64,000 nucleotides of DNA from Eubacteriales bacterium (GTDB lineage: Bacteria; Bacillota; Clostridia; Acetivibrionales; JANLFN01): NCBI GenBank assembly GCA_024655885.1, contig JANLFN010000005.1, forward strand, positions 11,660 to 75,659. The letters run 5' to 3'. Made by a program: the position numbers and the translations under genes. The number at the start of each line of letters is the position of its first letter. The first letter of the stretch is position 1. Positions 408-63,631 of this stretch are shown here, piece after piece. A model generated the notes under the pieces. That model did not search any database. It saw only the letters and a list, made by a program, of their open reading frames with translations, and had not been told where the DNA came from.

Positions 408-3050
408 ATGCAAAAGTTAGGTTTAAATGAATTACGAGAGAGGTTTTTAAGTTTTTTTGAAGGTAAGGACCATTTGCGCCTTCCGAGTTTTTCACTTATT
501 CCGCACAACGACCCCAGCCTTTTACTTATAAACTCGGGAATGGCTCCGCTAAAGCCTTATTTTACAGGTGCGGAACAGCCTCCGAGAACAAGGGTTACTA
601 CCTGCCAGAAGTGTATAAGGACCCCTGACATTGAAAACGTGGGCAAAACTGCAAGACACGGCACTTTTTTCGAGATGCTGGGGAACTTCTCCTTTGGAGA
701 TTATTTTAAATCGGAAGCCATTCCCTGGGCATGGGAGTTTGTTACCCAAGACTTAAAGCTCCCGGTGGACAGGCTTTGGGTTTCCATTTATGAACAGGAC
801 GATGAGGCCTTTGAGATATGGACCCGGGTGGTGGGGCTTCCACCCGAGAGAATAGTCAGGATGGGAAAGAAGGACAACTTCTGGGAGCACGGCACAGGCC
901 CCTGCGGACCCTGCTCGGAAATCTACTTCGACAGGGGGCCCGACAAGGGCTGCGGCAAGCCGGACTGCGTTGTAGGCTGCGACTGTGACAGGTATATTGA
1001 ATTTTGGAACCTTGTTTTTACCCAGTTTTACAGGCACGAGGACGGCAGCTACACAAAGCTGGCCAGGCCCAATATCGACACAGGGATGGGGCTTGAAAGG
1101 CTGGCCTGCATCATGCAGGATGTCAACAACCTCTTTGAAGTGGACACGGTAAGGAATATACTGAACAGTGTTTGCAAGACCGCAGGGGTGGAGTACGGGA
1201 ATTCCGAGAAGAATGACGTCTCCATCCGGGTTATTACCGACCATGTCCGCAGCACCACCATGATGGTCTCGGACGGTATCCTGCCGTCCAACGAGGGCAG
1301 GGGCTATGTATTGAGGAGGCTTTTAAGAAGGGCTGCAAGACATGGGAAACTCCTGGGCATCCACAGGCCTTTCCTGTATGAGATTGCGGCGGTGGTAATA
1401 AATGAATCCAAGCAGGCCTATCCGGAGCTTCTGGAAAAGTCCGGCTATATTCAAAAGGTTATACGGATTGAGGAGGAAAGATTTGATGCAACCGTTGACC
1501 AGGGCCTGAGTATTATAAATGAATTTATCAGGGAAGTTAAGGCGAAAAATGAAACCGCCCTTCCGGGAACCATGGTTTTCAAGCTTCACGATACCTACGG
1601 CTTTCCCCTGGATCTGACAAGGGAGATAGCCCAGGAAAACGGACTTGCCGTGGATGACGAAGGCTTCAGGGTGGAGATGGAGGAGCAGAGGAAAAAGGCC
1701 CGTGAGGCATTGAAGAACAAAGGCGGTTCTGCCTGGGATGAGGATGCATATTCCAAGCTGGATAAAAACCTTGTCACCCGGTTCGTAGGCTATGACCGGA
1801 GCGAGTGCGATGCCTCTGTCCTATATATTGTAAAGGACGACGCAGTGGTTGAGAATGCCCAGGAGGGTGACGAGGTCACCCTGATCCTGGACAGCACCCC
1901 CTTTTATGCCGAAAGCGGCGGCCAGGTGGGAGATACGGGCTTTATAGAGGGCAAAGACGGAATTGCCAGGGTAAATGACTGCAAAAAGACGGCGGATGGA
2001 AAGTACCTGCATACAGGAGTAATTGAAAAAGGAATAATTGAAAAACACAGCAGGGTAACAGCCAGAATCGATACCGCAAGAAGAATGGCCATTGCCAGGA
2101 ACCATACGGCTACGCACCTGCTCCAGAAGGCTTTGAGAAACGTAATAGGCGACCATGTGACACAGGCCGGGTCCCTTGTGGAACCGGACAGGCTCCGGTT
2201 TGACTTCACTCATTTTTCTCCTGTGGAGGGTGAGGCCCTTAAAAAGGTGGAAGATGAGGTTAACGACAGGATATTGGAGAACCTGCGCGTGGAAGTGAAG
2301 GAAATGCCTCTGGAAGAAGCCAGGAAGCTGGGAGCCATGGCCCTATTCGGTGAAAAATACGGCAGCGTGGTAAGACTGGTGAAAATAGGGGATTACAGCC
2401 TGGAGCTCTGCGGGGGGACCCATCTTGAGTCCACATCCCAGGCAGGACTCATAAAGATTCTGGGGGAATCGGGTGTGGCGGCAGGAGTAAGAAGAATTGA
2501 AGCGCTTACAGGGAAAGCTGCCATTGAGTACTATGCCGACAGGGAAAGGCTGTTGCTTGAAGTTGCGGCAACTTTAAAGGCCAGTCCCCGGGACAGCCTG
2601 AAAAAAATTGAAGCCCTGAATGCGGAAATTAAAAATGCCGGCAGGGAGCTGGAGCAGTTGAGAAACAAGCTGGTGGACGGAGAAATAGACCAGCTGGTGT
2701 CAAAGGCTGTGGATGTCAAGGGAGTCAAGGTGCTTGCCGGCCGGTTTGACCAGATGGACATGGAGGCCTTGAGAAACACGGGCGATAGGCTGAAAAACAG
2801 GCTGGGACCGGGAGTGGTGGTAGTGGCTGCCCCCCACGGCGATAAGGTGAATTTTGTTGTAATGGCTTCGAAGGAGGCTGTTGAAAAGGGAGTGCATGCG
2901 GGAAACGCCATAAGGGAAATCGCCAAAATTGCGGGCGGCGGCGGCGGTGGACGCCCCGACATGGCCCAGGCAGGGGGAAAGGATGTCTCAAAAATCGATG
3001 AGGCGCTCAAGCATTCCGTCAAAGTTGTGGAGGCACAGGTGAAAGGCTGA
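408..3050 (+). CDS. alaS: alanine--tRNA ligase
   Basis: 880-aa ORF with a class II AlaRS N-terminus ([19 protein letters not shown]), the editing-domain HTATHLL motif and a [15 protein letters not shown]-terminal tail. AGGAG lies 7 nt before ATG 408. The track start at 405 is an in-frame TTG one codon earlier. Confidence 0.97.
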
Positions 3051-3171
3051 GGCGAAAGCTTGTTTTAAAGCATGCCGGGAAATTCAGCTGTAAGGCGCTT
3101 TATTATGGAGTTTTGCTATAGCCGAATCATTTTTGCTGTAGATATGGAAAATTGTGCAAGGAGGAAGGATT

Positions 3172-3516
3172 ATGGAGGATTGTATTTTTTGCAAAATCAT
3201 AGACGGGAAGATTCCGGCCACAGTGGTGTACGAAGACGACAGGGTTATAGCCTTTCGCGATATTCAGCCTGTAGCTCCGGTGCATGTGCTGATTGTGCCG
3301 AAACAGCATATACAGAGTATCAGAGAAATAAATGAAAACAATGGGAGCTGCTTAATTGATATTCATATGGCGGCAAACAAAGTAGCCGAAAAATTGGGCA
3401 TATGGGACAAAGGGTACAGGTTGATCAACAACTGCGGAGCCGACGCAGGACAAACGGTGCTTCATCTTCATTACCACCTGATCGGAGGTATGGCCATGGG
3501 CCCAAAGATTATCTGA
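3172..3516 (+). CDS. HIT (histidine triad) family nucleotide hydrolase
   Basis: CIFCKI N-terminus, HVLIVPKQHI and the histidine triad HLHYHLIGG. GGAGGAAGG SD precedes ATG 3172; the track ORF starts at upstream GTG 3154. Confidence 0.9.
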   Translation: MEDCIFCKIIDGKIPATVVYEDDRVIAFRDIQPVAPVHVLIVPKQHIQSIREINENNGSCLIDIHMAANKVAEKLGIWDKGYRLINNCGADAGQTVLHLHYHLIGGMAMGPKII

Positions 3517-3555
3517 CAGGGATGGGAACATTCCCCGCTTAAAATCAATTATGTA

Positions 3556-3585
3556 TTGACACAATTTTAAAAATTAATATATAAT
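3556..3585 (+). promoter_or_regulatory. sigma-A type promoter for rpsU-yqeY
   Basis: TTGACA (3556-3561), 18-nt spacer, TATAAT (3580-3585), about 100 nt upstream of rpsU. Confidence 0.5.
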
Positions 3586-3684
3586 ATAGTGTGTGCTGTA
3601 TTAGCTTGGTTCCCAAATGGAATTTACAACAGAAAATGTAGCTTATTCCCGGCACAATTGTTACCATCGGAGGGAGGGAAGTAC

Positions 3685-3861
3685 GTGTCTGAAGTTAGAG
3701 TAAAAGAAAACGAATCACTGGATAGTGCTCTTAAGAGATTTAAAAGACAATGCGCTAAGGCGGGCGTTTTGGCAGAAGTAAGAAAAAGGGAGCATTATGA
3801 AAAACCAAGTGTAAAGCGAAAAAAGAAATCTGAAGCTGCAAGAAAAAGGAAATTTAAATAA
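3685..3861 (+). CDS. rpsU: 30S ribosomal protein S21
   Basis: 58-aa product [57 protein letters not shown] is a typical bS21. GTG 3685 is preceded by GGAGGGAAG. The longer track ORF from 3589 has no SD. Confidence 0.95.
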
Positions 3862-3875
3862 GAGAGGATTTGTTT

Positions 3876-4319
3876 ATGTCTCTTAAAGAAAAACTGCTGG
3901 AAGATATGAAAACCGCTATGAGAGAGAAGGACAGCATCAGGAAGAACGCGGTCCAAATGGTGAGGTCGGCAGTGCTTCAGGTAGAAAAAGACAGTAAAGT
4001 AACCCTTGACGATGATGGTATAATCGAAGTAATAGCAAAAGAAGTAAAGAAGCGCAGGGATTCCCTGCCTGAATATGAGAAAAGCGGCAGACAGGATCTG
4101 GTGGATGAGTTGAAATCTGAGATTGAAGTGCTGATGCAATACCTGCCGCAGCAACTGACCGAAGAGGAGCTTGAAGAAATAGTAAAGCAGGCGGTTCAAA
4201 GCACCGGAGCGAATTCGGTCAGAGATATCGGAAAGGTCATGCAGGCAGTTCTGCCCAAGGTTAAAGGCAGGGCGGACGGTAAGTTGGTAAACCAAATAGC
4301 TAAGAAAATTTTAGGATAA
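3876..4319 (+). CDS. yqeY: GatB/YqeY domain-containing protein
   Basis: MSLKEKLLEDMKTAMREKD...EYEKSGRQDL...AKKILG is the YqeY-like pattern, and its position after rpsU matches Firmicute synteny. ATG 3876 follows GAGAGG. Confidence 0.88.
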   Translation: MSLKEKLLEDMKTAMREKDSIRKNAVQMVRSAVLQVEKDSKVTLDDDGIIEVIAKEVKKRRDSLPEYEKSGRQDLVDELKSEIEVLMQYLPQQLTEEELEEIVKQAVQSTGANSVRDIGKVMQAVLPKVKGRADGKLVNQIAKKILG

Positions 4320-4344
4320 AAAGCTCGAGAAATCGAGCTTTTTT
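4318..4344. terminator. bidirectional intrinsic terminator shared by convergent yqeY and the TIR gene
   Basis: AAGCTCGA (4321-4328), GAAA loop, TCGAGCTT (4333-4340). An A-run lies 5' and a T-run 3', so it reads as hairpin plus U-tract on both strands. Confidence 0.7.
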
Positions 4345-4352
4345 AATTGCTT

Positions 4353-5489
4353 TTACAACAGTTCCATGAGCTCCCAGAACTTTTTGGATTCAATCTTGGC
4401 ACGCATTTCAAACCTTTCCTCAAAATATTCATGGAATTCACTTCCTGCGGAGGACAGGAACGTGTTGAATATTTCAAGGGACCTTAACGCCTTTTTTACT
4501 TCCGGGTCCTTTAAATTCAGGGCGACAGAGTTTCCCTCCATTATCAAATAGTCGTTTTCCGCAGCTTCAATAATACAATTTCTTTCGCTTGGGTTATCGG
4601 CATCCGGTAAAAAATCCTTCCCGATAAAATGGTAGTATAAAAGCTTCCGCACAATCCAGGGAAGCCTTTTTACCCTATTCAACAAATCCTCCGCCAAGAT
4701 ATCGAAGTATTCAAAATCATCCACCGGATGACCCCAGGCATTAAAAGAGGATTCTGCTTTTATAGTTTTTTCCACACTGTCTGTTTTTTCGTTTAGCCGC
4801 ACCATTCCTCCATGAAGGCCAATTCTGGGCGCTTTTGCATAGTATTTTCCGTGGAGCGAATTCCGGCTTCTTATATTTTCAAGCTGGGCAATTTTGATTT
4901 CCGGCTTTGGTATTTCCCACGGCTTTTCTTCTGCCGGGTCATTGACCCTATCGGCTTGCTGGCTTTTTGCCCATAAATGTCCGTCCGGCTTGTAGAGAAC
5001 ATGGGAATCATTTCCGATCAGTTTGCTAATTTCATTTAAAAATCTGTCTCTTTTTCGCTCCCACCTGTTTAAATCAAAATCATTAATGTGGAATGCCTCT
5101 CTAATTCTGCTGCACAGGGAATTCAGTTTTGCCCTGTCGTTGATCATAAGGCCCTGGGTTGTTGAAATGACGCCTTGGATGTCGGAGAGGGAAAGGGGAG
5201 GAATGAGGATGGGTATGTGCAGGTTTGTTTTTATCCAGGTGGCCCCCATTTCGCAAAGGCAGAAGGGACTGGAGTAAAAGTGCCTTGACAGCATAAACAG
5301 GACCATGACTTCTTCACTCAGTTCATTTCTCAAACGCTCCAGGAAATTCTCACCCAGGGGGATTCCGTAGCCTTCCAGCGACGAACAGAAGATGTTTTCT
5401 GACGGAAGACCCATATTTTCCAGTAAGTCGATCATGTGCTCCACCAATTTCCTGTCATAAGATGAATGGCTTATAAATATTTTTTTCAT
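4353..5489 (-). CDS. TIR-domain protein with uncharacterised about 240-aa C-terminal domain
   Basis: 378 aa. The N-terminal roughly 135 aa show bacterial TIR hallmarks: beta-A KKIFISHSSYD, then LFMLSRHFYSSPFCLCE with the putative catalytic Glu at residue 80. I recognise no motif in the C-terminal part and see no TM segments. Sampled lines are about 33-45% GC against about 50-57% in the neighbours. Confidence 0.75.
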   Translation of the reverse strand: MKKIFISHSSYDRKLVEHMIDLLENMGLPSENIFCSSLEGYGIPLGENFLERLRNELSEEVMVLFMLSRHFYSSPFCLCEMGATWIKTNLHIPILIPPLSLSDIQGVISTTQGLMINDRAKLNSLCSRIREAFHINDFDLNRWERKRDRFLNEISKLIGNDSHVLYKPDGHLWAKSQQADRVNDPAEEKPWEIPKPEIKIAQLENIRSRNSLHGKYYAKAPRIGLHGGMVRLNEKTDSVEKTIKAESSFNAWGHPVDDFEYFDILAEDLLNRVKRLPWIVRKLLYYHFIGKDFLPDADNPSERNCIIEAAENDYLIMEGNSVALNLKDPEVKKALRSLEIFNTFLSSAGSEFHEYFEERFEMRAKIESKKFWELMELL

Positions 5490-5680
5490 AAGCTTACAGA
5501 ACTCCTTTAAATCATTAAATTCTCGTGTTCCACCCTATTGCAGTCTATAGCTTGCTGATTTAAAGTCCGTAAAAATCCATATTTAAAGCTTCATTCATTC
5601 TTCTATGAAAGAGCGAAATATTCAATTGGCATTAAACAAGAACAAATGTATGTATTTATAGGGTTATTTTGTCTACATCT

Positions 5681-5689
5681 ATTATACCA
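5681..5689 (-). promoter_or_regulatory. extended -10 promoter (TGGTATAAT on minus strand) upstream of the TIR gene
   Basis: The reverse complement of 5681-5689 reads TGGTATAAT, about 190 nt upstream of the TIR start. There is no good -35, as is usual for extended -10 promoters. Confidence 0.35.
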
Positions 5690-5713
5690 AAAAAAAACAA
5701 ATAAGTATATAAA

Positions 5714-5745
5714 TAAAAAAAATAGGGCTGTGAAACTATCCCTAT
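5714..5745 (-). terminator. weak orphan terminator-like hairpin (minus-strand orientation)
   Basis: ATAGGG (5722-5727) pairs with CCCTAT (5740-5745). On the minus strand this is followed by a T8 run, the complement of the A-run at 5715-5722. The stem is only 6 bp, so the call is weak. Confidence 0.3.
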
Positions 5746-5825
5746 ATGATTTTATGTAAATATGCCAAAGTCTCCGAGAATGTGATAAAATAATAACATC
5801 CGTTACTATTTTACTGACAAAAAAA

Positions 5826-5854
5826 TTGTACTATTCATATAAATACTTTATAAT
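5826..5854 (+). promoter_or_regulatory. sigma-A type promoter for recJ operon
   Basis: TTGTAC (5826-5831), 17-nt spacer, TATAAT (5849-5854). The leader contains the GC palindrome AAGCCCGCGGGCTT (about 5891-5904). Confidence 0.45.
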
Positions 5855-5962
5855 ATAACTAATTTAGGGTGGGCAGCGTTTTTAAAACCGGAAGCCCGCG
5901 GGCTTTTGAAAGCTTGCGGCCGGTATCATGATTCGCTGCCTGGTGGCTGCAGGTGTGATTTT

Positions 5963-8458
5963 ATGATTCCGAACAAAATATGGATTTACCATAATTCCCC
6001 CGAGATAAAGATGGGTGATTTAGCTGTGAAAGCCGGAATTCATCCTCTTATCGCGAAAATATTTCAAAACAGGGGAATAGGAGACATAGACTATATAAAA
6101 AAATACTTATACCCGTCACTGGATGAGCTCCATGACCCTTTTTTGCTTAAGGACATGGATAAGGCTGTAGACAGGATCATAAATGCCGTGAACGGCGGCG
6201 AAAGCATTGTAATTTACGGTGATTACGACGTGGACGGGATAACAGCCACATCCATCCTCTATCACTTTTTAACAAGGCTGAAGGCAAAGGTGGAATACTA
6301 TATTCCCGACAGGATGGATGAGGGCTACGGACTTTCCATGAGCGGAATGGACAGGATACTGGAGGCAAATGCTTCCCTGATTATTACTGTTGACTGCGGA
6401 ATCACCGCTGTTGAGGAAGTAAAGTATATAAAAAGCAAAAATGTGGATGTCATCATTACCGACCATCACAGGTGCAAGGAAGAACTGCCTGATGCCCTTG
6501 CCGTGGTGAATCCCACCCGGCCCGACTGTGAATATCCCTTTAAAGGACTTGCAGGTGTAGGGGTAGCTTATAAGCTGCTGGATGCACTGTGCATAAAAAT
6601 GGGCCTGGGCGACCTTTGCCGGGAATATCTTGATCTGGTGGCCATAGGAACAGTGGCCGATATAGTGCCGCTGGTGGACGAGAACAGGATTATAGCCAAA
6701 TTTGGAATCCCTGTCATTGAAAACAGCGGCAATCTTGGGCTGCGTGTCCTTATGGAAAGCTGCGGCCTTGATAATAAGCCGGTTACATCCTATACCATAG
6801 GGTTCATGCTGGCACCCAGGATCAATGCGGCAGGAAGGGTGGGGGACGCCCGAAGAGCGGTGGAGCTGTTTAATACCCGTGACAGGGAGAAGGCCCTTGA
6901 TCTGGCACTGGAATTAAACGATGAAAACAGGTACCGGCAGGACATGGAAGGGGATATTTTTCAGCAGGCTCTGAGTTTTATAGATTCAAATATTGACCTT
7001 GACAGGGAAAAGGTTATTGTGGTTGCGGGAGAAGGCTGGCATGCCGGGGTGATAGGAATTGTGGCCTCCAGGATAACCGAAAGGTATTACAGGCCGTGCA
7101 TCCTCATAACAAACGAAGAAGGCATGGGAAAGGGGTCGGGAAGAAGCATCCAGGGCTTTAACATATTTGACGCACTCGAGCACTGCGAGGACCTGCTGGA
7201 AAAGTACGGGGGCCACGAACTGGCGGCAGGCTTGTCCCTGAAGATTGAAAACGTCCCTGAATTCCGGAAAAGGATCAATGCCTATGCGGATGCGGTTTTA
7301 ACCGAGTATGAGCTGACACCCAAGCTTAAGATAGATGCCGTAATCGGCAGGGAAGACGTGAATGTGGAAACCGTTGAGGCAATTGAGGCATTAGCCCCCT
7401 TTGGTCCGGGAAATCCTGCTCCTCTGTTTTTATATAATAACCTGAAGGCCAGTGACATCAGAACCGTAGGTGAGGGCAAAAAGCACCTGAAGCTTAAGCT
7501 GTGGGAGGATGAATTTCATATAGACGCCATCGGATTCAATATGGGAGAGGCGGCCGGAAGCTTTAAATGCGGCGATGCACTGGATGTGGTATGCACCATG
7601 GAAATTAATACATGGAACCTGGTTGAAAGGGTGCAGTTGAATATAAAAGACTTAAGGCATGAGATGTATTCCACTGTTGAAAACATGTACTTTTACAGCC
7701 TGGATCAGTGCCTGGACACTTCTTCCTTATGCGGGAGAAGCGGGGATGTGGATTTACAGGCGGAATGGAATGATACCATAAGCAGCCGGGAGGATCTATT
7801 TAAAGTGCTGTCCGAGCCGAAAGCGCTGGGTGGGAAAACGGCACTGCTGGTGAATTCCCTGGCCCATGTAAAAACAGTGGTGGAAAGGCTGGAGGGATCG
7901 GGAGAGGATTTTAAAAGGATTTGCAGCATCGGCTACGGAGATTTCAGCTGTAAAAACAGCACCCCGGTGAATATTATTGTTAACCCCGACCCCCGGAAAA
8001 TTCCCTTTGACCGCATTGACAGGGTCATCCTCTATGGGGACTGGGTCAGTGAGAATTACCTTTCCTGCATTTTAAAAAAAGCAGGCTGCAGTAAAATCTT
8101 TTTTTACGGGGAGTCGGGAAGGATTCGTTTCAAAAAGGATGAAATCATACCGGAGCGCAGCGACCTGGCTGCAATATACCGGTATCTGAAGGCAAATTAT
8201 AAAAATGAAATCCGGGTGGAAAACCTTTTTGCCCTAGCCGGAAGGATCGGAGACAGCTACAGGATCAGAATGAATTATTTCAAGCTAAAAAAAGGGTTGG
8301 GTATTCTTGAGGAAGTCGGTATTATTAAAGGGGAGCCCTTTGGCCGGCAGGGCATGACCTTAAAGATTTTAAACAATGGGAAGGCAAAAGTAAGCCTGGA
8401 CAGTTCGAGGCTGTTCAGGGGACTTCAGGCTTTAAAGGCCCAAATCAAAGATAAATAA
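5963..8458 (+). CDS. recJ: single-stranded-DNA-specific exonuclease RecJ
   Basis: DHH family motifs VIYGDYDVDGITA, ITVDCG and IITDHH, plus the DHHA1 motif GGHELAAG. ATG 5963 gives MIPNKIW...; the track ORF starts 19 codons earlier at a TTG without homology support. Confidence 0.93.
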   Translation: MIPNKIWIYHNSPEIKMGDLAVKAGIHPLIAKIFQNRGIGDIDYIKKYLYPSLDELHDPFLLKDMDKAVDRIINAVNGGESIVIYGDYDVDGITATSILYHFLTRLKAKVEYYIPDRMDEGYGLSMSGMDRILEANASLIITVDCGITAVEEVKYIKSKNVDVIITDHHRCKEELPDALAVVNPTRPDCEYPFKGLAGVGVAYKLLDALCIKMGLGDLCREYLDLVAIGTVADIVPLVDENRIIAKFGIPVIENSGNLGLRVLMESCGLDNKPVTSYTIGFMLAPRINAAGRVGDARRAVELFNTRDREKALDLALELNDENRYRQDMEGDIFQQALSFIDSNIDLDREKVIVVAGEGWHAGVIGIVASRITERYYRPCILITNEEGMGKGSGRSIQGFNIFDALEHCEDLLEKYGGHELAAGLSLKIENVPEFRKRINAYADAVLTEYELTPKLKIDAVIGREDVNVETVEAIEALAPFGPGNPAPLFLYNNLKASDIRTVGEGKKHLKLKLWEDEFHIDAIGFNMGEAAGSFKCGDALDVVCTMEINTWNLVERVQLNIKDLRHEMYSTVENMYFYSLDQCLDTSSLCGRSGDVDLQAEWNDTISSREDLFKVLSEPKALGGKTALLVNSLAHVKTVVERLEGSGEDFKRICSIGYGDFSCKNSTPVNIIVNPDPRKIPFDRIDRVILYGDWVSENYLSCILKKAGCSKIFFYGESGRIRFKKDEIIPERSDLAAIYRYLKANYKNEIRVENLFALAGRIGDSYRIRMNYFKLKKGLGILEEVGIIKGEPFGRQGMTLKILNNGKAKVSLDSSRLFRGLQALKAQIKDK

Positions 8459-8476
8459 GCAGGAGGGAGAAAAAGG

Positions 8477-8992
8477 ATGGATATCAAATCCAAGTTAAGG
8501 CATGTGATGAACTTCCCGACGGAAGGAATCGACTTTATTGACATTACTACCGTACTGCAGGATGCACAAGCACTGAGGGAAAGTCTTGACGGTATGAAGA
8601 AGAAAATTGAGGAGATAGGGGAATTTGACCTGATTGTTGGGCCCGAATCCAGGGGTTTTATTTTTGGTGCCCCCCTGGCATACATAACAGGAAAGGGATT
8701 TGTGCCCATAAGAAAGAAAGGAAAGCTGCCCTATAAAACCGTAAGCATTGAATACCAGCTGGAATACGGTACCGACACCCTGGAAATCCATGAGGATGCA
8801 ATAAAGCCGGGGCAAAAGGTGATAATCGTGGATGACCTGCTGGCTACAGGCGGGACGTCACAGTCCAACATCAAGCTTGTGGAAATGCTGGGCGGACAGG
8901 TGGCAGGACTGGTTTACCTGGTTGAACTCACCTTTTTAAACGGGCGTGAAAAATTAAAAGGATTCAAGGTGGATTCCATTGTACAATTTTAA
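8477..8992 (+). CDS. apt: adenine phosphoribosyltransferase
   Basis: 171 aa with PRPP-binding loop VIIVDDLLATGGT and FPTEGIDFIDIT near the N-terminus. GGAGGGAG SD. Confidence 0.95.
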   Translation: MDIKSKLRHVMNFPTEGIDFIDITTVLQDAQALRESLDGMKKKIEEIGEFDLIVGPESRGFIFGAPLAYITGKGFVPIRKKGKLPYKTVSIEYQLEYGTDTLEIHEDAIKPGQKVIIVDDLLATGGTSQSNIKLVEMLGGQVAGLVYLVELTFLNGREKLKGFKVDSIVQF

Positions 8993-9020
8993 GCCCACAG
9001 ACGTTTTGACGGAGGGTCTC

Positions 9021-11198
9021 ATGGACGATGGCTATAGCCGGCTGGTGAAAAAAATAAAAGAATATAATCCCAACTGCAATTTTACTCTTGTGGAAAAGGC
9101 GTATATGGTTTCCAAAAAGGCACACGACGGCCAGCAGCGTGTATCCGGCGATCCCTATATTATACACCCTATTGAAGTCGCCTGTATTCTGGCTGAGCTG
9201 GAATTGGACTGCACTTCCATTATCGCAGGGATTTTGCATGATACCATCGAGGATACCACCTATACCTTCGAGCAGTTGAAAGAGAACTTCAACGAGGAGA
9301 TTGCCACCCTGGTGGACGGTGTTACCAAGCTGGGAAAAATTCCATACACCACCAAGGAGGAACAGCAGGTAGAAAACCTGAGGAAAATGTTCCTCGCCAT
9401 GGCCAAGGACATTAGGGTTATTCTCATCAAATTGGCCGACAGGCTGCACAACATGAGGACTTTAAAGTACATGACCCCTGAGAAGCAGCTGGAAAAAGCC
9501 AAGGAAACCCTTGAAATTTATGCGCCCCTTGCCCACCGCTTGGGGATATCCAAAATAAAGTGGGAGCTTGAGGATATTTGCCTGAGGTACATTGACCCCA
9601 AAGGCTATTATGAGCTTGTGGATAAAATTGCGAAGAAGAGGAAGGAAAGGGAAGCGTATATCACCGAGATCATCCAGACCTTGAGTGAAAAGACCAAAGA
9701 GCTGGGGATTGAGGATGCGCATATCGACGGAAGGCCCAAGCATTTTTACAGTATTTATAAAAAGATGATAGACCAGAACAAAACCCTTGAACAGATTTAT
9801 GACCTTTTTGCGGTGAGGGTCATTGTGAGCTCGGTGAAGGACTGCTATGCGGTGCTGGGTCTGGTACACGAGCTTTACAAGCCCATTCCGGGAAGGTTTA
9901 AGGACTATATTGCCATGCCCAAGCCTAATATGTACCAATCCCTGCACACCACGTTGATAGGCCATGAGGGTTTGCCCTTTGAGGTTCAGATAAGGACCTG
10001 GGATATGCACCGGGTTGCCGAATACGGTATTGCAGCCCACTGGAAATACAAGGAGGGGTATTCGGGGAGCAAGGATATCGACAGCAAGCTGGCATGGCTG
10101 AGACAGCTGCTTGACTGGCAAAAGGACATGCGGGACGCCAAGGAGTTTATGGAGACCCTCAAAATAGATCTTTTTACCGACGAGGTTTTTGTCTTCACTC
10201 CCAAGGGTGATGTCTTAAACCTGCCCATGGGTTCCACTCCCATTGATTTTGCCTATGCAATCCACAGCGCCGTGGGCAATAAAATGATGGGCGCCAAGGT
10301 GAACGGCAAGATCGTTCCCCTTGAATATGCCCTGAAAAACGGGGATATCGTGGAGATATTGACTTCCTCCGCGGTTCACGGGCCAAGCCGGGATTGGCTG
10401 AAAATAGCGAAAAGCTCCCAGGCAAGGAATAAAATAAACCAGTGGCTGAAAAAGGAATACAGGGAAGAAAACATCATCAAGGGAAAGGAGGCTGTGGAAA
10501 GGGAACTAAAAAAACAGGGCTTTACCTTTAACCAGATATTTAAACCGGAATGGATAGAAATTATATTGAAGAAATACACCTTCAACACCCTTGACGATAT
10601 GTATGCCTCGGTAGGTTATGGGGCCATTACGGCAAATAAGGTGATTTCAAGGCTTAAGGAAGAGTTTAAGAAAACGCTTAAACCCGATGAGCTGAGCGAT
10701 TTCGAGTCTCTTACCCAGCAAAAGGTCAACCGCAAGAAGAAAAGCATCCCCGAGAGCGGTGTTGTGGTCAAAGGTATCGACAACTGCCTCGTACGGCTTT
10801 CCAGGTGCTGCAATCCCGTACCCGGCGATGAGATCATAGGATATATCACCAGGGGCAGGGGAGTTTCGGTGCACAGGAAGGATTGCACCAATGTGAGGGA
10901 CAATATCGACGGGGATACCCGGTTGATTGAAGTCAGCTGGTATACGTCGGAAAATGCCTCCTATAAGGCGGATGTGACCTTGATGGCAAACGACCGTACC
11001 GCTTTGCTTATGGAGATAACCAACGTGATCGGCGAATCCAAAATACCTTTGAAGGCTATTAATGCAAGGACCACAAAAGAACAGATAGCCATTATGAGCC
11101 TTACCCTTGAGATAACAAATACCGAGCAGCTGGAGAAGATTATCAAAAGGCTTAAAAAGGTGGACGGCGTTTTTGAAGTGTCGAGGAGCAAACAGTAA
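9021..11198 (+). CDS. relA: bifunctional (p)ppGpp synthetase/hydrolase (RelA/SpoT family)
   Basis: HD hydrolase domain (HPIEVA...LHDTIEDT), synthetase motif DYIAMPKPNMYQSLHTT, TGS (VFTPKGDV) and a C-terminal ACT domain. GGAGGG SD before ATG 9021. Confidence 0.95.
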   Translation: MDDGYSRLVKKIKEYNPNCNFTLVEKAYMVSKKAHDGQQRVSGDPYIIHPIEVACILAELELDCTSIIAGILHDTIEDTTYTFEQLKENFNEEIATLVDGVTKLGKIPYTTKEEQQVENLRKMFLAMAKDIRVILIKLADRLHNMRTLKYMTPEKQLEKAKETLEIYAPLAHRLGISKIKWELEDICLRYIDPKGYYELVDKIAKKRKEREAYITEIIQTLSEKTKELGIEDAHIDGRPKHFYSIYKKMIDQNKTLEQIYDLFAVRVIVSSVKDCYAVLGLVHELYKPIPGRFKDYIAMPKPNMYQSLHTTLIGHEGLPFEVQIRTWDMHRVAEYGIAAHWKYKEGYSGSKDIDSKLAWLRQLLDWQKDMRDAKEFMETLKIDLFTDEVFVFTPKGDVLNLPMGSTPIDFAYAIHSAVGNKMMGAKVNGKIVPLEYALKNGDIVEILTSSAVHGPSRDWLKIAKSSQARNKINQWLKKEYREENIIKGKEAVERELKKQGFTFNQIFKPEWIEIILKKYTFNTLDDMYASVGYGAITANKVISRLKEEFKKTLKPDELSDFESLTQQKVNRKKKSIPESGVVVKGIDNCLVRLSRCCNPVPGDEIIGYITRGRGVSVHRKDCTNVRDNIDGDTRLIEVSWYTSENASYKADVTLMANDRTALLMEITNVIGESKIPLKAINARTTKEQIAIMSLTLEITNTEQLEKIIKRLKKVDGVFEVSRSKQ

Positions 11199-11349: not shown

Positions 11350-11799
11350 GTGCGTGCTGTTGTACAACGGGTAGCCAAGGCGAAAGTTTTTGCGAACGGG
11401 TGTACCGTAGGGGAAATTGCCAGGGGACTCCTGGTTTTGCTGGGAATCGGGCAGGAGGATACCCGGAAGGATGTGGAATATCTGGCCGGCAAGACCGTAG
11501 GCTTAAGGATTTTTGAAGACACAAAGGGTAAAATGAACCTGTCCCTCCAGGATATAAAAGGAGAACTGCTGGTGGTGTCCCAGTTTACACTTTACGGTGA
11601 CTGCAGGAAAGGAAAACGGCCCGGCTTTGACAGGGCGGCGAGGCCTGAAAGGGCAGAGGTGCTGTATAACGAATTTCTGGACTGCTGCCGGGGATATGGG
11701 ATAAAGGTTGAATCGGGAAGGTTTCAAACGGAAATGATGGTGGAGATACACAATCACGGACCGGTAACAATTTTGCTGGACAGTAAAAAGGAGTTTTAG
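11350..11799 (+). CDS. dtd: D-aminoacyl-tRNA deacylase
   Basis: 149 aa, MRAVVQRV...VSQFTLYGD...NHGPVT pattern. GTG start 10 nt after AGGAG. The relA-dtd order is classical. Confidence 0.93.
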
Positions 11800-11823
11800 C
11801 GCGCAATTTTAGGGAGGGTGGCT

Positions 11824-12435
11824 ATGGTTTTAAAGTGTTTACCCACAGGAGTGTTTGAGTCCAACTGCTATATATTGGGAAATAACGGAGGGGGCGTTGT
11901 CATCGATGCCGGCGTGAGTCCGGAGGAAGTGGACGGCGCAGTTTCAGAAGAGGGACTGAAAATAAAGTATATCATCCTGACCCATGGGCATATTGACCAT
12001 ATTGCCTATGTCGATGAGATTAGAGACCGGCTGAAGGCAAAGGTGCTGATCCACAGGGAAGACGCAGAGGCCCTCACCGACCCCCGGCAGAATCTGTCAT
12101 CCCTGATGGGCAGCAGTTCTTCGTTTAGGGAAGCCGATGGGCTTTTGAAGGACGGGGATGTGCTGGAAGTGGGAGGAATGGAGCTTGAAATTATCCATAC
12201 TCCGGGGCATACTCCGGGTGGAATTTGCATCAAGGCAGACAAATTAATTTTTAGCGGGGATACGCTGTTCAAGGATTCCATAGGCCGTACCGACCTGGGA
12301 AACGGAAATTTCGAGGTGCTTGTCCATTCCATAAAAAGCAGGCTCATGGTGCTGGACGACACTGTGGCGGTCTATCCCGGCCATGGGGATTTTTCCACCA
12401 TCGGGCATGAAAAAAGGAATAATCCGTTTATTTAG
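11824..12435 (+). CDS. MBL-fold metallo-hydrolase
   Basis: THGHIDH metal-binding motif, HTPGHTPG and PGHG. GGGAGGG SD before ATG 11824. Confidence 0.88.
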   Translation: MVLKCLPTGVFESNCYILGNNGGGVVIDAGVSPEEVDGAVSEEGLKIKYIILTHGHIDHIAYVDEIRDRLKAKVLIHREDAEALTDPRQNLSSLMGSSSSFREADGLLKDGDVLEVGGMELEIIHTPGHTPGGICIKADKLIFSGDTLFKDSIGRTDLGNGNFEVLVHSIKSRLMVLDDTVAVYPGHGDFSTIGHEKRNNPFI

Positions 12436-12571
12436 AAATGAAACTATGAATAGCTGCAAGAATAAATTTTTACAATTGTGGAGTTCTAGCAGGGAGTGGT
12501 CCGGCTATTTTTTGCAATAAAAAAGTTTGACCGCCCGTGTTGAAGCGACGCGGGCACCAGGGGTAAATGGG

Positions 12572-14089
12572 ATGATTTATGTAAAGCTTGCAGGACATGA
12601 CTTCTTGTATGAAGTTGAGGATATCATAAGGGCTTTTTTTGATAATGAACAAGTATCAAGCACCCACTGCGAGCCTCCGGCAGGATACCGGGGGATTTTT
12701 GTGTGCAGCGGCATGTATAACGACAGGGAAGGGCTCAGGCTGAAAACGCTGATTGTATCCGACGGCATACGGCGCTACGGCAGGGAGGTCTTATTGAGGG
12801 ATTTGCCTGAGGAGGACCCAAAAAACACAGGGCATGAAAGGCGCAAACAGATCAAGCGCGAACTCCGGCGGGAATTGTACGCCGCTTTTTCCGAAATTAC
12901 GGGGAAACACCTGCCCTGGGGCACATTGACAGGAATACGCCCGGCAAAGATTGTCCATGAGATGCTGGAAAAAGGGATGGGCCGGGAAGAGGTGCAGGAA
13001 CGGCTGGTGGGGTACTATAAGATGTCTGCCAAAAAAGCCGGCCTGCTCTATGAGGTGGCGGCAACCGAAAGAAGGCTCCTGGAGAATAGGGACACCGCTG
13101 CGGCCAGCCTTTATATAGGCATCCCTTTCTGCAATTCCAGATGCCTTTACTGCTCCTTTACCTCCAATTTGATCGGTAAATATGCGGGTATGGTGGATGC
13201 GTACCTGGATGCGCTTAAAAAGGAAATCGAAGGGACTGCCCGTCTGGTAAAAAAGTATGGCTATAGGATTCAGAGCATTTATATGGGAGGGGGAACGCCG
13301 ACTTCCATTGAGGCAGGGCAGCTGGACAGCCTGCTTCAATATATTGAGGGGAGCCTTGACTTAAGTGCCGCAGTGGAATACACACTGGAGGCCGGACGCC
13401 CCGATTCCATCAATGTGGAAAAGCTGGAGGCCATTAAAAGGAGCAAAGTCAGCCGGATAAGCATAAACCCGCAGACCATGAATGATGAAACCCTGAAGCT
13501 CATCGGCAGAAATCACACCGCAGAGGATGTATTCCGCGTGTTTGAGCTTGTGAGGGAATGGGGCTTCGGCAACGTCAACATGGATACCATTGTGGGACTC
13601 CCGGGGGAGACCCCGGCCCATTTTGAAAACACTTTAAAGCAAATTGCCCTGCTTGGCCCGGAAAGCCTTACCGTCCACGCACTGGCGGTAAAAAGGGCGT
13701 CGCGGCTCAAAGAGGACAGGAAAAGCTACAGCCTGGCATCCCCGGAGGAAGCGGAAAAAATGGTGGACACGGCCTGGGAATATGCCGCTGCCTGGGGTAT
13801 GCACCCCTACTATCTCTACAGGCAGAAGAATATTCTGGGAAACATGGAAAACGTAGGATACAGCAAGCCCGGTTATGAAGGTATATACAACATGCAGATT
13901 ATGGAAGAAAGGCAGACCATCCTGGCTGTGGGGGCGGGAGCCGTCACAAAGGCGGTTTACCCGGAGGAAAACCGGATAGAAAGGGCGTTCAACGTAAAGA
14001 GCGTGGAAGAATACATCCGGCGCATCGATGAAATGGTTGAGAGAAAAAAGGCGCTGCTTGAAGGGAATGTTATTAAAAACGCACCATAA
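12572..14089 (+). CDS. hemZ: radical SAM protein, HemZ-like (coproporphyrinogen dehydrogenase family)
   Basis: About 505 aa with the N-terminal MIYVKLAGHDFLYEVEDIIRAFF module and the radical SAM cluster motif CNSRCLYCSF. ATG 12572 is preferred over the upstream track start. Confidence 0.8.
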   Translation: MIYVKLAGHDFLYEVEDIIRAFFDNEQVSSTHCEPPAGYRGIFVCSGMYNDREGLRLKTLIVSDGIRRYGREVLLRDLPEEDPKNTGHERRKQIKRELRRELYAAFSEITGKHLPWGTLTGIRPAKIVHEMLEKGMGREEVQERLVGYYKMSAKKAGLLYEVAATERRLLENRDTAAASLYIGIPFCNSRCLYCSFTSNLIGKYAGMVDAYLDALKKEIEGTARLVKKYGYRIQSIYMGGGTPTSIEAGQLDSLLQYIEGSLDLSAAVEYTLEAGRPDSINVEKLEAIKRSKVSRISINPQTMNDETLKLIGRNHTAEDVFRVFELVREWGFGNVNMDTIVGLPGETPAHFENTLKQIALLGPESLTVHALAVKRASRLKEDRKSYSLASPEEAEKMVDTAWEYAAAWGMHPYYLYRQKNILGNMENVGYSKPGYEGIYNMQIMEERQTILAVGAGAVTKAVYPEENRIERAFNVKSVEEYIRRIDEMVERKKALLEGNVIKNAP

Positions 14090-14144: not shown

Positions 14145-14398
14145 AATGTAAATGATTGAGGCAATGAACGGGAGAAGTAGTCAATACTGCCTTCAGGGAG
14201 AAAGCGCCGTGACTGGAAGCGCTTTCAGGATAAGGTTGATGAACGAACGCCCGGGAGTCGACGGGCTGAAAGCATGGCGCATGCAAATAGGCCGGTCCGT
14301 ATGTCCAGCGTTAATGGACCAGAGTGGGCGTTATGCCTATGAGGGTGGCACCGCGGGAAGTAAGCCTCTCGTCCCTTTTTCCGGGATGAGGGGCTTTT
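14145..14398 (+). promoter_or_regulatory. T-box leader (tRNA-sensing riboswitch) with intrinsic terminator, upstream of hisS-aspS
   Basis: Stem I elements are GGGAGAAGTAG and the distal helix GAAAGCGC/GCGCTTTC (14199-14226) with a GTGACTGG loop. The conserved T-box sequence TGAGGGTGGCACCGCGG sits at 14339-14356. The terminator is a 12-bp stem (14364-14375 with 14383-14394) followed by TTTT. Confidence 0.85.
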
Positions 14399-14465
14399 AT
14401 AATGTACGGTGCGCCTGCCATTCAAGATTGGAATTGCGATACTGATACGAAGGGGAGGAAACGGC

Positions 14466-15785
14466 TTGAACGGGAATATTGTTGCTCCTTCAATACTGCC
14501 GGGCTTTATGGAGCTTTTGCCGGCGGACCAGATGCTGTTCAACAAGATGCTTGATACAATCCGGTTTACCTATGAGAAATACGGTTTTATACCCATTGAT
14601 ACGCCTATGATAGAAAAATCCGAAATACTCCTGGCCAAAAGCGGGGGTGAAACCGAAAAGCAGGTCTACAGGTTCAGCAAAGGCGATAACGACCTCTCAT
14701 TAAGGTTTGACCTTACCGTTCCCCTGGCAAGGTATGTGGCACAGCACTATAACGAGCTGACTTTTCCATTCAGGAGATACCACATAGGCAAGGTGTTCAG
14801 GGGTGAAAGGCCTCAGAAAGGGCGCTTCAGGGAATTTTACCAGTGCGACATCGACATTGTGGGCAGTGAAAGCTTGAGCGTCATCAACGATGCGGAGATT
14901 CTCAGCGTCATTTATTCAACTTTTAAAGCCCTGGGATTTCAAAGCTTTACCATCCGCATCAACAACAGGAAAATCCTAAATGGGTTTTTTTCGTGGCTGG
15001 GTGTTGAAAACAAGACGGAAGTCTTAAGGACCATAGACAAAATGGAGAAGATCGGAGAACAGAATACGGCCCGGGAGCTTGAAGCCCTGGGGCTGAGCGC
15101 GGGTGTGGCACAGGAGATCATAAGGCTTACAAAAATAAAAGGAAAAGGGGACGAAATCGTAGAAAGCCTTAAGGGGATGAAGGTTGAAAATGAGGAATTT
15201 TCTACGGGATTGGAGGAATTGTCCCAAGTTTGCAGTTATATCGGATATTTCGGCATTCCTGAGGATAATTTTTCTGTGGACCTGACCATCGCCAGGGGAC
15301 TGGACTATTATACAGGCACCGTCTACGAGACCGTATTGAACGACTACCCGTCTATTGGAAGCGTGTGCTCGGGGGGGAGATACGACAACCTGGCGCAAAA
15401 CTACACCAACAAGAAACTGCCGGGGGTAGGGATCTCTATAGGGCTGACCCGGCTTTTCTACCAGCTGAGGGAGGCAAAAATCGTGGAGCCCTACGGCAGG
15501 TCGACGCCTACAAAGCTTTTGGTAATACCCATGCCGGATGCGATGAACTATTGCCTTGATATTTCCACAAGAGCCAGGGAAAACGGGATACCCACGGAGG
15601 TGTACTTTAACGAGGGCAGGATGGGCAAGAAGCTGGCTTATGCCGATAAGCTGGGCATTCCCTTTGTGGTCGTAGTGGGGGAGGATGAGATCAAAACAGG
15701 GCTTTTCAAACTTAAGAATATGAAGACGGGCGAACAGGAAACCTTAAGCCTTGAGGAAATAATTGAAAAATTAAAACTTGTATGA
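14466..15785 (+). CDS. hisS: histidine--tRNA ligase
   Basis: Class II motifs FRGERPQKGRFREFYQCD and GGRYDNL, plus an anticodon-binding C-terminus. TTG 14466 is 7 nt after GGGGAGG and gives MNGNIVAPSILPGFMELLP. The track ORF start at 14409 lies inside the T-box terminator. Confidence 0.93.
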   Translation: MNGNIVAPSILPGFMELLPADQMLFNKMLDTIRFTYEKYGFIPIDTPMIEKSEILLAKSGGETEKQVYRFSKGDNDLSLRFDLTVPLARYVAQHYNELTFPFRRYHIGKVFRGERPQKGRFREFYQCDIDIVGSESLSVINDAEILSVIYSTFKALGFQSFTIRINNRKILNGFFSWLGVENKTEVLRTIDKMEKIGEQNTARELEALGLSAGVAQEIIRLTKIKGKGDEIVESLKGMKVENEEFSTGLEELSQVCSYIGYFGIPEDNFSVDLTIARGLDYYTGTVYETVLNDYPSIGSVCSGGRYDNLAQNYTNKKLPGVGISIGLTRLFYQLREAKIVEPYGRSTPTKLLVIPMPDAMNYCLDISTRARENGIPTEVYFNEGRMGKKLAYADKLGIPFVVVVGEDEIKTGLFKLKNMKTGEQETLSLEEIIEKLKLV

Positions 15786-18275: not shown

Positions 18276-19133
18276 ATGCCAAGACGTATGCGAAGTTTGA
18301 GCAGCAGCAAAATATACCATGTGATGGTACGCGGCAACGAAAGAAAGAACCTATTCATGGATGAAGAAGACAAAACAAGGTATATAGAGACTTTATCCAG
18401 GGTTGCAGGGCACTCTTCAAGCGGAATTAAAACAACACGCCAAGAGTGCCCTGTTTTGCATACCAAAAAGGAAAAGGAATTTTCCTTATATGCTTACTGC
18501 TTGATGGATAACCATGTTCATCTCATTATCAACGAGGAGGAAGATGAAATATCCAGGATCATGAAAAGGATAGGAAGCAGCTATGCGTACTATTTTAATA
18601 AAAAATATAGCCGAGTGGGGCACCTGTTTCAAGACCGTTTTAAAAGCGAGGCAATAGAAAACGACAGTTATTTGCTTGCCGCAGTGAGATACATTCACAA
18701 TAACCCGGTAAGAGCATGTCTGGTGAAGCATGCTTCGGAGTATAAGTGGAGCAGTTATCATGAATATGTCAGTGAAAATAGCCTACAGAAATTATTAGAC
18801 AGGGATAAGGTTCTGGAAATGCTATCAGGGGACAGGGGAAAGGCGATAAAATTATTTGTTGAATACTCAAACCAGGAAAACAGGGACGCATTTTTAGAAG
18901 TTGTAGAGGCAGAGGATAATAAGGCGTTGAAAAGCACAGTAGAGGTTATGAAATATGTGCAAGAGTTTTTAGAAAAAAAGAATATAGGGATTATGAGACT
19001 GAATGATAAAGAGAATTTGGGTATTCGTAACGAGCTAATATACGAGCTTAAGTGCAAGTCAAACTTATCAATAAGGCAGATTGCGGAACATTTAAAGGTA
19101 AACAGGGGTGTGGTTCAGAGAGTTAAAGTGTGA
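18276..19133 (+). CDS. Y1 (HUH) transposase IS200-like / REP-associated tyrosine transposase-like protein with C-terminal HTH
   Basis: YHVMVRGNERKNLF, the HUH motif in CLMDNHVHLII, the catalytic-Tyr region AAVRYIHNNPV, and a C-terminal LSIRQIAEHLKVNRGVVQRV helix-turn-helix. Confidence 0.8.
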   Translation: MPRRMRSLSSSKIYHVMVRGNERKNLFMDEEDKTRYIETLSRVAGHSSSGIKTTRQECPVLHTKKEKEFSLYAYCLMDNHVHLIINEEEDEISRIMKRIGSSYAYYFNKKYSRVGHLFQDRFKSEAIENDSYLLAAVRYIHNNPVRACLVKHASEYKWSSYHEYVSENSLQKLLDRDKVLEMLSGDRGKAIKLFVEYSNQENRDAFLEVVEAEDNKALKSTVEVMKYVQEFLEKKNIGIMRLNDKENLGIRNELIYELKCKSNLSIRQIAEHLKVNRGVVQRVKV

Positions 19134-33492: not shown

Positions 33493-33690
33493 GGGCCTGT
33501 GATGGGGGCAATAGGGTAAAGGAAATGGGCTGAACGGATGTAAAAGCCAAAGTCATGAAAATGGCTTTGGCTTTTTAACGGTCTCACTTGATTTTGAACT
33601 ATAAAAATGCTACTGCATATGCTATAATGATTCAGGTAAACGGAAAGCAACTTATTTTTTTCCTTTTTTACTTAGAACGGAGTTGATTGA

Positions 33691-34833: not shown

Positions 34834-34930
34834 GCACAAAAGTAGGGGCAGGCATGGGTAAACATAGGCAAAAGCTCAATGGGCTTAACCCATGTTTATT
34901 TATATTTACCCCAATTACGGAGGAAAAAGG

Positions 34931-57833: not shown

Positions 57834-57921
57834 TTTTTGTTGATGTCATGATTTTATCTGCACCACAGAAGGTTTTGGTTTAAAACTATGGGAAAATCAG
57901 CCGGTATTTTAATTTGAGAAA

Positions 57922-61522: not shown

Positions 61523-61558
61523 TTTGAAAAAGATCAGTAAAGGAAAAACACGTTAGGA

Positions 61559-63598: not shown

Positions 63599-63631
63599 TG
63601 AAACAAAACCTCCTCCATAAAATTTTAAATG

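Follow-up and report, generated by a model that had tools for sequence, protein, structure and literature searches.

A putative single-gene defence protein that joins an SpbK-type TIR domain to an unannotated C-terminal domain, encoded between yqeY and recJ in a Clostridia genome

The gene considered here lies on the minus strand of a 64,000-nucleotide stretch of DNA from a Eubacteriales bacterium (GenBank assembly GCA_024655885.1, contig JANLFN010000005.1, positions 11,660 to 75,659), and this whole stretch is referred to as the window. The gene occupies positions 4353-5489, runs from ATG to TAA and specifies a product of 378 amino acids (aa); the open reading frame (ORF) listing shows it to be real, with exact coordinates. 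Its product begins with a TIR domain like that of SpbK (YddK), a single-gene abortive-infection nicotinamide adenine dinucleotide (NAD+) hydrolase, or NADase, of the Bacillus subtilis element ICEBs1. This is followed by a linker and by a C-terminal domain (CTD, residues 257-378) through which the protein belongs to a family that has no name, and the gene itself is an accessory insertion between yqeY and recJ. The features of the gene and its immediate surroundings are listed below, with residue numbers referring to the 378-aa product.

4353..5489, minus strand: complete gene, consisting of SpbK-type TIR domain, linker and CTD; TAA stop at 4353-4355 (ORF listing)
5010..5489, minus strand: TIR module (residues 1-160), with an additional C-terminal helix (140-162) corresponding to SpbK helix aF
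5250..5252, minus strand: codon of Glu80, the predicted catalytic Glu, equivalent to SpbK E192 (HMMER alignment to 9phb)
4722..5009, minus strand: linker, residues 161-256, predicted disordered; AlphaFold2 (AF2) predicted local distance difference test (pLDDT) score <35
4356..4721, minus strand: CTD, residues 257-378, an acidic helical domain with one beta-hairpin and no library match
5502..5508, minus strand: AAAGGAG, resembling a Shine-Dalgarno sequence, with its end 12 nt before the ATG (read from the sequence)
5681-5689, minus strand: extended -10 element TGGTATAAT, with a weak -35 TATACT at 5704-5709; the site 5681..5709 is promoter-like
4318..4343, no strand assigned: hairpin terminator bordered by an A-run and, on its opposite side, a T-run, between the convergent yqeY and TIR genes and common to both
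~4346..5900, no strand assigned: extra DNA with respect to relatives in which yqeY abuts recJ; the right boundary is approximate

A first-pass annotation, made from the sequence alone, had assigned a bacterial TIR signature to residues 1-135. Pfam agrees on the domain, with TIR_2 (PF13676) matching residues 4-105 at 39.8 bits against a gathering cutoff of 28 (E 7.5e-10), but the boundary has to be moved, as the TIR domain ends near residue 160 and the segment NRWERKRDRF, formerly placed outside it, aligns with SpbK helix aF. The PADLOC spbK profile matches at E 6.3e-47, with residues 2-156 of the protein aligned to profile positions 149-307 of 308, which form its TIR half. Among PDB sequences, the SpbK chain 9phb matches at E 7.9e-22 with ~45-50% identity over 150 aa. 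The AF2 model, built with 13 homologs, has pLDDT values of ~85-93 for residues 1-160, and its top Foldseek match is the SpbK filament subunit 9phb_A (E 1.5e-9, template-modelling (TM) score 0.84 on the target, root-mean-square deviation 2.4 A), followed by SPARTA TIR-APAZ proteins. The same ranking of structural neighbours, SpbK TIR and then SPARTA TIRs, is given in the SpbK structure paper (PMC12847820). These comparisons assign the window TIR to the SpbK type, which the first-pass annotation had not recognized.

Residues on which SpbK depends were located through the alignment to 9phb, whose chain numbering is offset by +24 from native SpbK and was read with that offset. Glu80, already proposed for the catalytic position in the first-pass annotation, aligns with SpbK E192, and the E192Q change in SpbK abolishes both NAD+ depletion (NADase activity) and defence (PMC11984713). 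G82 and W85 correspond to SpbK G194 and W197, which lie at the aC-helix interface and are needed for activity (PMC12847820). Furthermore, S9, S10 and F76 correspond to S121, S122 and Y188 as predicted NAD+-contacting positions, while C79 differs from its SpbK counterpart N191. Throughout the proteins that combine this TIR with the CTD, E80 and G82 are conserved in 101/101 sequences and W85 in 99/101.

The part of the protein beyond the TIR signature had been described as a single unrecognized domain of roughly 240 aa. It is indeed unannotated, but an alignment with 12 full-length homologs and the AF2 model show it to be composite, consisting of the last TIR helix, a 96-aa linker and a domain of 122 aa. 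In the close clade of homologs the mean pairwise identity of the linker is 12%, against 61% for the TIR domain and 51% for the CTD, and linker length runs from 10 to 94 aa. The window linker matches no coiled-coil-type profile, and in this it differs from the ~63-aa coiled coil of the wider family described below. Modelled alone by AF2, the CTD is compact (122 aa, pLDDT 92.4, predicted TM score 0.83) and is laid out as three helices, a beta-hairpin and three further helices. Its family motifs are LPxIV..ALYY, A.E..YL, N..DPxV and RFW, and its conserved positions are mainly hydrophobic or structural (e.g., P277, A309, D328-P329 and F371-W372), with no constellation of catalytic-looking polar residues conserved. 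The earlier statement that this part has no transmembrane helices agrees with a maximum Kyte-Doolittle 19-residue score of 1.31, by which a membrane protein was ruled out.

No library searched accounts for the CTD. Pfam gives nothing for it, neither for the single sequence nor for 32 family members; it is likewise unmatched in PHROGs, PADLOC and NCBIfam, and its profile finds no match among PDB sequences. With Foldseek, the best PDB matches of the CTD model are of the MarR-type winged-helix fold (E >=0.15, TM 0.35-0.46), and the best match in BFVD has E 0.11. An alternative follows the PDB matches, namely that the CTD is a winged-helix nucleic-acid binder that senses phage DNA or RNA or represses its own promoter. 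In its favour, the best matches are the regulators MarR, SlyA, RovA and PrfA, the order of helices and hairpin fits a MarR-like layout, and there are plant TIRs that assemble on DNA (cited in PMC12847820). However, the matches are weak (E 0.15-1, all TM values <0.5), and the CTD is acidic in every sampled member (32/32; isoelectric point (pI) 4.2-5.9, median 4.76), with a pI of 4.73 and a net charge of -9 in the window copy. Acidic residues are conserved even in the helix at the 'recognition' position (EAAE[DN]DYL). A role in binding nucleic acid is accordingly judged improbable. Two specific identities were rejected: a MarR-type regulator (no Pfam MarR/HTH match in 32 members, TM <=0.46, pI 4.73) and an effector-associated adaptor domain, or EAD (no Pfam match of any kind in 32 members).

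The extent of the family was determined with a profile, A3, built from close-clade CTDs with the window CTD as seed and searched against 1.84 billion cluster representatives, where it found 279 at E <=1e-3 and 79 at E <=1e-10. The SpbK-type TIR together with the CTD occurs in 116 of the 158 proteins examined, which are mostly ~345 aa long with the TIR at the extreme N-terminus, and in the wider family the two are separated by a linker of constant length, ~63 aa, with weak coiled-coil-type Pfam matches. The other 42 entries have the CTD only, are mostly short, and look like fragments. In two proteins, P0232 and P0243, a TIR of another subtype, canonical TIR_2 (4e-28 and 7e-17), precedes the coiled coil and CTD. 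In P0214 (408 aa) this place is taken by an adenylate/guanylate-cyclase domain (PF00211), with a borderline score of 22.7 bits against a cutoff of 21.9, and this protein may be a Pycsar-like signal generator using the same input module. The family is taxonomically scattered, with members in Deltaproteobacteria metagenome-assembled genomes (MAGs), a Lokiarchaeota MAG and Fictibacillus phosphorivorans, and its named members are annotated solely as 'TIR domain-containing protein'. The window's own clade, with its variable, non-coiled linker, is rare: it comprises about a dozen sequences, the best 48% identical to the query, and the full-length homologs of the window protein number ~12, at 38-48% identity.

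A further ~500 proteins have only the TIR in common with the query, and 85 of the 108 examined combine a variable N-terminal domain with a C-terminal TIR, the classic arrangement of SpbK. The N-terminal domains joined to this TIR type are many and unrelated to one another. The CTD profile matched 0/108 of these SpbK-like proteins, and the idea that the CTD is a permuted SpbK-like N-terminal sensor was rejected on this result. In JGI metagenome contigs the CTD profile found no relative. Bacterial TIR proteins with unknown domains are common, and literature searches returned no account of the TIR/coiled-coil/CTD architecture. These proteins are an unnamed family, defined here, in which the arrangement and the CTD are new and the effector head and its logic are known. 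It is possible, and proposed here tentatively, that the coiled coil and CTD form a portable input module of prokaryotic immunity that is mounted on several enzymatic heads, and that the family represents widespread single-chain abortive-infection systems. If so, the same unit would act as a trigger sensor or a clustering module on an SpbK-type TIR, on another TIR subtype and on a nucleotide cyclase, in Bacteria and at least one Asgard archaeal MAG, and defence-finding tools would detect the family only through half of the spbK model. There is an annotation gap in any case, as the PADLOC spbK match covers about half of the length and the CTD has no Pfam, PHROGs or NCBIfam model.

The placement of the gene, with yqeY to its left and recJ to its right, agrees with Pfam, which finds AlaRS, HIT, S21 and YqeY upstream, all housekeeping genes on the plus strand, and RecJ, APRT, RelA/SpoT, Dtd, an MBL hydrolase and a radical SAM enzyme downstream, also on the plus strand. 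The junction was compared in 12 relatives found through RecJ (44-54% identity), which are Clostridia MAGs of the Acetivibrionales/Hungateiclostridiaceae type plus Pseudobacteroides. The TIR protein is encoded in 0/12 of these loci. Two of them, L009 and L012, keep the order alaS-hit-rpsU-yqeY|recJ-apt-relA-dtd without the TIR gene, which, together with the different sites of close homologs given below, establishes the accessory status that the first-pass annotation had suspected. From the yqeY stop to the recJ start the window has ~1.64 kb, compared with ~125-190 bp in L012 and L009. The hairpin 3' of yqeY is also present in both of these relatives, and the extra DNA therefore begins right after it; judged by this conservation, the hairpin at 4318-4343 is part of the core genome. 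A cassette borne by a transposon or integrase was considered and rejected, since the insertion shows no target-site duplication, flanking direct or inverted repeats, transposase, integrase or recombinase, and the nearest mobile-element genes are at least ~13 kb from the TIR gene. Separately, L012 carries ~2.8 kb of extra DNA (2343-5149) between the HIT gene and rpsU, where the window has ~170 bp, and this gap is a further variable spot in the same conserved gene string.

Close homologs of the TIR gene are found at no fewer than four different genomic sites:

Window: yqeY | recJ
L001: DUF1934 | SLH
L016 and L017: MCP | contig end
L002, L018, L019 and L020: RNaseH_like (PF04308) | TIR gene | Pyr_redox-rhodanese | HTH_5

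At the last of these sites the TIR genes are 44-63% identical among the four genomes, compared with 70-84% for the flanking genes. The gene thus appears to be resident there and to be evolving much faster than its neighbours, with allelic replacement as a possibility. Fast divergence is common for immune genes. In L002, the Pyr_redox gene (11571-13205) was left uncalled by the gene caller. The RNaseH_like gene was considered as a partner and rejected, as it is adjacent only in these four mutually syntenic genomes; PF04308 is not found beside the gene in the window, L001, L016 or L021, and is absent from the whole 64-kb window. In L021, a Deltaproteobacteria MAG, a canonical member of the family (P0270) lies 22 bp downstream of an 873-aa AAA_13 ATPase (locus 7357-11080) that matches the PADLOC candidate PDC-S06 (5.5e-130), with a PDC-S05/ORF6N gene (1.9e-59) and an integrase nearby, the family member standing between the integrase and the two defence candidates. 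The arrangement may represent a two-gene variant or a defence islet. In L022, the family member lies in a polysaccharide-synthesis locus.

Across the ~8 homolog contexts no gene neighbour is conserved and hence no operonic partner emerges, and in the window the flanks consist of housekeeping genes by Pfam, consistent with the earlier statement that no known TIR partner is adjacent. A small partner ORF hidden in the spacer upstream of the gene was also sought and rejected, the spacer holding only ORFs of 20-37 aa, none of evident significance. These contexts bear on the alternative that the TIR makes a cyclic ADP-ribose (ADPR)-type signal which activates an effector encoded elsewhere, as in Thoeris ThsB, or by way of a side product like the N1-cADPR of SpbK. 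SpbK does itself produce N1-cADPR (PMC12847820), weak ThsB profile matches were obtained (E 1e-4), and one CTD protein bears a nucleotide cyclase, which is a signal-making enzyme. However, no ThsA-like or nucleotide-binding effector adjoins the gene in the ~8 contexts, whereas Thoeris genes are operonic, and the match to the SpbK TIR is ~40 orders of magnitude stronger than that to ThsB. Signalling to a distant effector is therefore considered unlikely.

The notion of a low-GC, horizontally acquired cassette, which the first-pass annotation had drawn from a few sampled lines, does not hold. The GC content of the gene is 43.4%, against 45.4 +/- 4.3% in the 40 other window ORFs (z -0.45), with z values relative to window ORFs of -0.08 for GC at third codon positions (GC3) and -0.21 for codon usage, and the alaS line chosen earlier for comparison came from one of the most GC-rich genes of the window (51.8%). 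The AT-rich spacer has the size ascribed to it and a GC content of 32%, but it is no mark of foreign origin, as intergenic GC in the window ranges from 28 to 48%. A compositional island was rejected in turn, with GC, GC3 and codon usage all within 0.5 standard deviations of the window mean. Composition alone says nothing either way on whether the gene is accessory or core. As a caution on method, the sampling of a few GC values had wrongly pointed to horizontal transfer, and it was synteny that gave the real evidence of accessory status. Elsewhere in the window, an MFS transporter gene at 46931-48145 on the plus strand has by far the most deviant codon usage (z -3.65) and, on composition, is more likely than the TIR gene to be of foreign origin. 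GC3 is also very low at 60986-62371 on the plus strand, where a flavodoxin gene and a partial aldo-keto-reductase-like gene give z values of -2.3 and -2.9.

The core-like GC content and codon usage, the housekeeping flanks, and the position between RNaseH_like and Pyr_redox-HTH_5 conserved in four genomes would all suit a non-immune cellular role, such as that of a vertically retained NAD+ regulator linked to stress or dormancy. On the other side, relatives lack the gene at this junction, and different lineages carry it in different positions. It also diverges much faster than the genes beside it, occurs patchily among phyla and domains, and has an anti-phage protein as its closest characterized relative. 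Such a role thus seems improbable.

The gene appears to be equipped with its own expression signals. The spacer upstream of it measures 416 bp (5490-5905) up to the TTG proposed mechanically as the recJ start (5906), or ~473 bp (5490-5962) up to the ATG at 5963 (MIPNKIW...), which is probably the true start because the RecJ proteins of relatives align only from about residue 10-24. An extended -10 promoter, reported in the first-pass annotation, is present at 5681-5689 on the minus strand, and the promoter-like site 5681-5709 implies a leader of ~185 nt. The extended -10 motif has 10 matches in the window where 2.6 are expected by chance, and 0/100 shuffles reached 10. A consensus promoter scan does not include the site, because its -35 is weak. 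TGGTAnAAT also lies upstream of the gene in 7/7 homolog loci for which DNA was available, and therefore each copy of the gene seems to bring its own promoter; the leaders of these loci have nothing in common beyond the -10 motif, and Rfam has no match in the 470-bp spacer or the leader. At its other end the gene stops 9 nt from the yqeY hairpin, which could terminate transcription in both directions because an A-run and a T-run border it on opposite sides. Between the TIR gene and recJ, a plus-strand TG-TAAAAT site at 5762-5791 is probably the recJ promoter. Downstream of it and just upstream of recJ, the palindrome AAGCCCGCGGGCTT followed by TTT (5877-5906, plus strand) may be a small attenuator or the relic of a terminator.

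These signals also bear on whether the window copy is a decaying or inactive relic of its family. In favour of decay, an unconserved stretch of 96 aa, predicted to be disordered, stands in place of the ~63-aa coiled coil; Arg replaces the nearly invariant Cys363; and the best homolog among 5.8 billion clusters reaches only 48% identity. However, the 378-codon ORF is intact, all the other invariant TIR and CTD residues are kept, both domains are modelled with high confidence, and the gene has a promoter-like site, a terminator and a sequence resembling a Shine-Dalgarno element. The relatives P0003 and P0009 also have long linkers. Decay of the window copy is thus regarded as very improbable.

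The first-pass annotation had described the gene as the only one on the minus strand in the first 23 kb, and this holds considerably further, to about 55.6 kb, the remaining minus-strand ORFs of at least 140 aa before that point each being nested in a longer plus-strand ORF. Among them are a 395-aa ORF at 33652-34839, which is a shadow of dnaJ, and the ORF at 43420-44661. Beyond the TIR gene, the next genuine minus-strand genes lie at 55637-58584, where those for an rve-family integrase (56430-57833) and an AAA_22/TniB-like ATPase (55637-56446) form a pair that resembles an IS21- or Tn-like transposition module, with a third minus-strand ORF at 57922-58584. Another mobile-element gene, a 285-aa ORF of low GC (39.3%) at 18276-19133 on the plus strand, matches the IS200-like Y1 transposase family (Pfam Y1_Tnp 2.6e-14) and sits among housekeeping genes, at a distance of ~13 kb from the TIR gene. 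Rfam has just two matches in the whole window, a T-box leader (14155-14379, plus strand) upstream of the ORF at 14409-15785 and an FMN riboswitch (63686-63813, minus strand) upstream of the minus-strand ORF at 63035-63634.

With an SpbK-type TIR, no partner and accessory status, the best reading is the single-gene defence module that had been suggested from the start. More specifically, the gene would encode a self-contained, single-protein abortive-infection sensor-effector, an NADase with the domain order of SpbK reversed and the CTD as its input, and the probability of this reading is put at roughly 0.6. The CTD is cast as the input because it is portable between enzymatic heads, has no catalytic signature and is tethered by a coiled coil or flexible segment. 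Binding of SpbK to the dodecameric phage portal, through its non-TIR domain, clusters the TIRs and so activates the protein (PMC12847820), and the match to SpbK therefore offers a concrete mechanistic model for the window protein, in which NADase activity, trigger, CTD role and phage phenotype are all drawn from analogy with SpbK. In this model the protein would be expressed from its own extended -10 promoter and would borrow the yqeY terminator. Before infection its TIRs would be inactive, possibly as aC-aC dimers as in the SpbK model. The CTD, tethered here by a flexible linker and in most family members by the ~63-aa coiled coil, would bind to, or self-assemble on, a multimeric trigger that is most probably a phage protein, and this would raise the local concentration of TIRs. 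Head-to-tail packing through the BE interface would then form composite active sites around Glu80, and NAD+ would be hydrolysed to ADPR, or possibly to a cyclic ADPR, so that infected cell and phage are starved and the infection aborts.

Several observations weigh against this sensor-effector reading. The CTD forms a single conserved family in distant taxa, while classic SpbK-like sensors are hypervariable, and a conserved CTD suits an assembly or regulatory module, or a receptor for some conserved ligand, no less well than a direct sensor of a variable phage protein. The SpbK BB-loop residue D158 is Gly46 in the window protein. In addition, the predicted disorder of the linker that stands in place of the coiled coil and the change of Cys363 to Arg could mean that the window copy works differently or is impaired. 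The core-like composition shows that the TIR gene is not a recent import, and its homologs lie mostly in housekeeping contexts, with defence candidates nearby in 1 of ~8. Furthermore, the CTD profile finds no relative in 2.9 million viral contigs, and tblastn against phage and plasmid records matches the TIR half only, with coverage of at most 44%.

Among known systems, Thoeris and SPARTA each have a partial likeness to the window protein. Thoeris ThsB is likewise a small bacterial TIR with a conserved catalytic Glu and the weak profile similarity given above, but it has no CTD and resembles the window protein far less than SpbK does. Since a ThsA effector gene (SIR2/SLOG or Macro-TM) is not found beside the gene in any locus examined, the system is not Thoeris. 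SPARTA TIR-APAZ proteins are the second-best structural neighbours (Foldseek E ~1e-4) and also have an N-terminal TIR followed by a sensor-coupling region. However, identity is 18-20% with the TIR part alone matching, and the window has no APAZ domain or adjacent prokaryotic Argonaute (pAgo), so that the system is not SPARTA. Lone TIR proteins that confer phage resistance dependent on the TIR active site (PMC11350192) are alike in being single TIR genes, and differ, by their description, in consisting of a short TIR alone, with no coiled coil or CTD mentioned. Pycsar cyclases (PycC) enter the comparison through P0214, in which a cyclase domain stands in place of the TIR, and which hints that the CTD can feed different immune enzymes; this is a single example with a borderline Pfam score, and the window protein itself has no cyclase domain.

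The closest comparison is with SpbK, the best-understood bacterial TIR NADase that is switched on by clustering driven by a phage protein. Both proteins have the same TIR subtype, including the extra helix aF, and the catalytic Glu and the Gly and Trp of the aC interface are conserved in the window protein. Both are also products of single accessory genes and have one non-TIR domain on a flexible linker. They differ in that the TIR is C-terminal in SpbK and N-terminal, from residue 2, in the window protein, and in that the non-TIR domains are unrelated in sequence, positions 1-148 of the spbK profile remaining unmatched. The N-terminal sensor of SpbK (residues 1-94) binds the clip of the YonE portal, whereas the window protein has no N-terminal domain and so lacks one of the defining features of the SpbK family, and the portal trigger belongs to SpbK and is not carried over to the window protein. 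SpbK is furthermore encoded on ICEBs1, an integrative and conjugative element (ICE), whereas the window gene is not on a recognizable ICE or prophage. Ultimately, the same effector head is found here in the opposite orientation, with an unannotated tail that defines a few hundred clusters across distant phyla. If this tail is a trigger sensor, it offers a simple one-gene system in which to ask which phage feature is sensed, and whether the clustering of TIRs works whichever end the sensor occupies.

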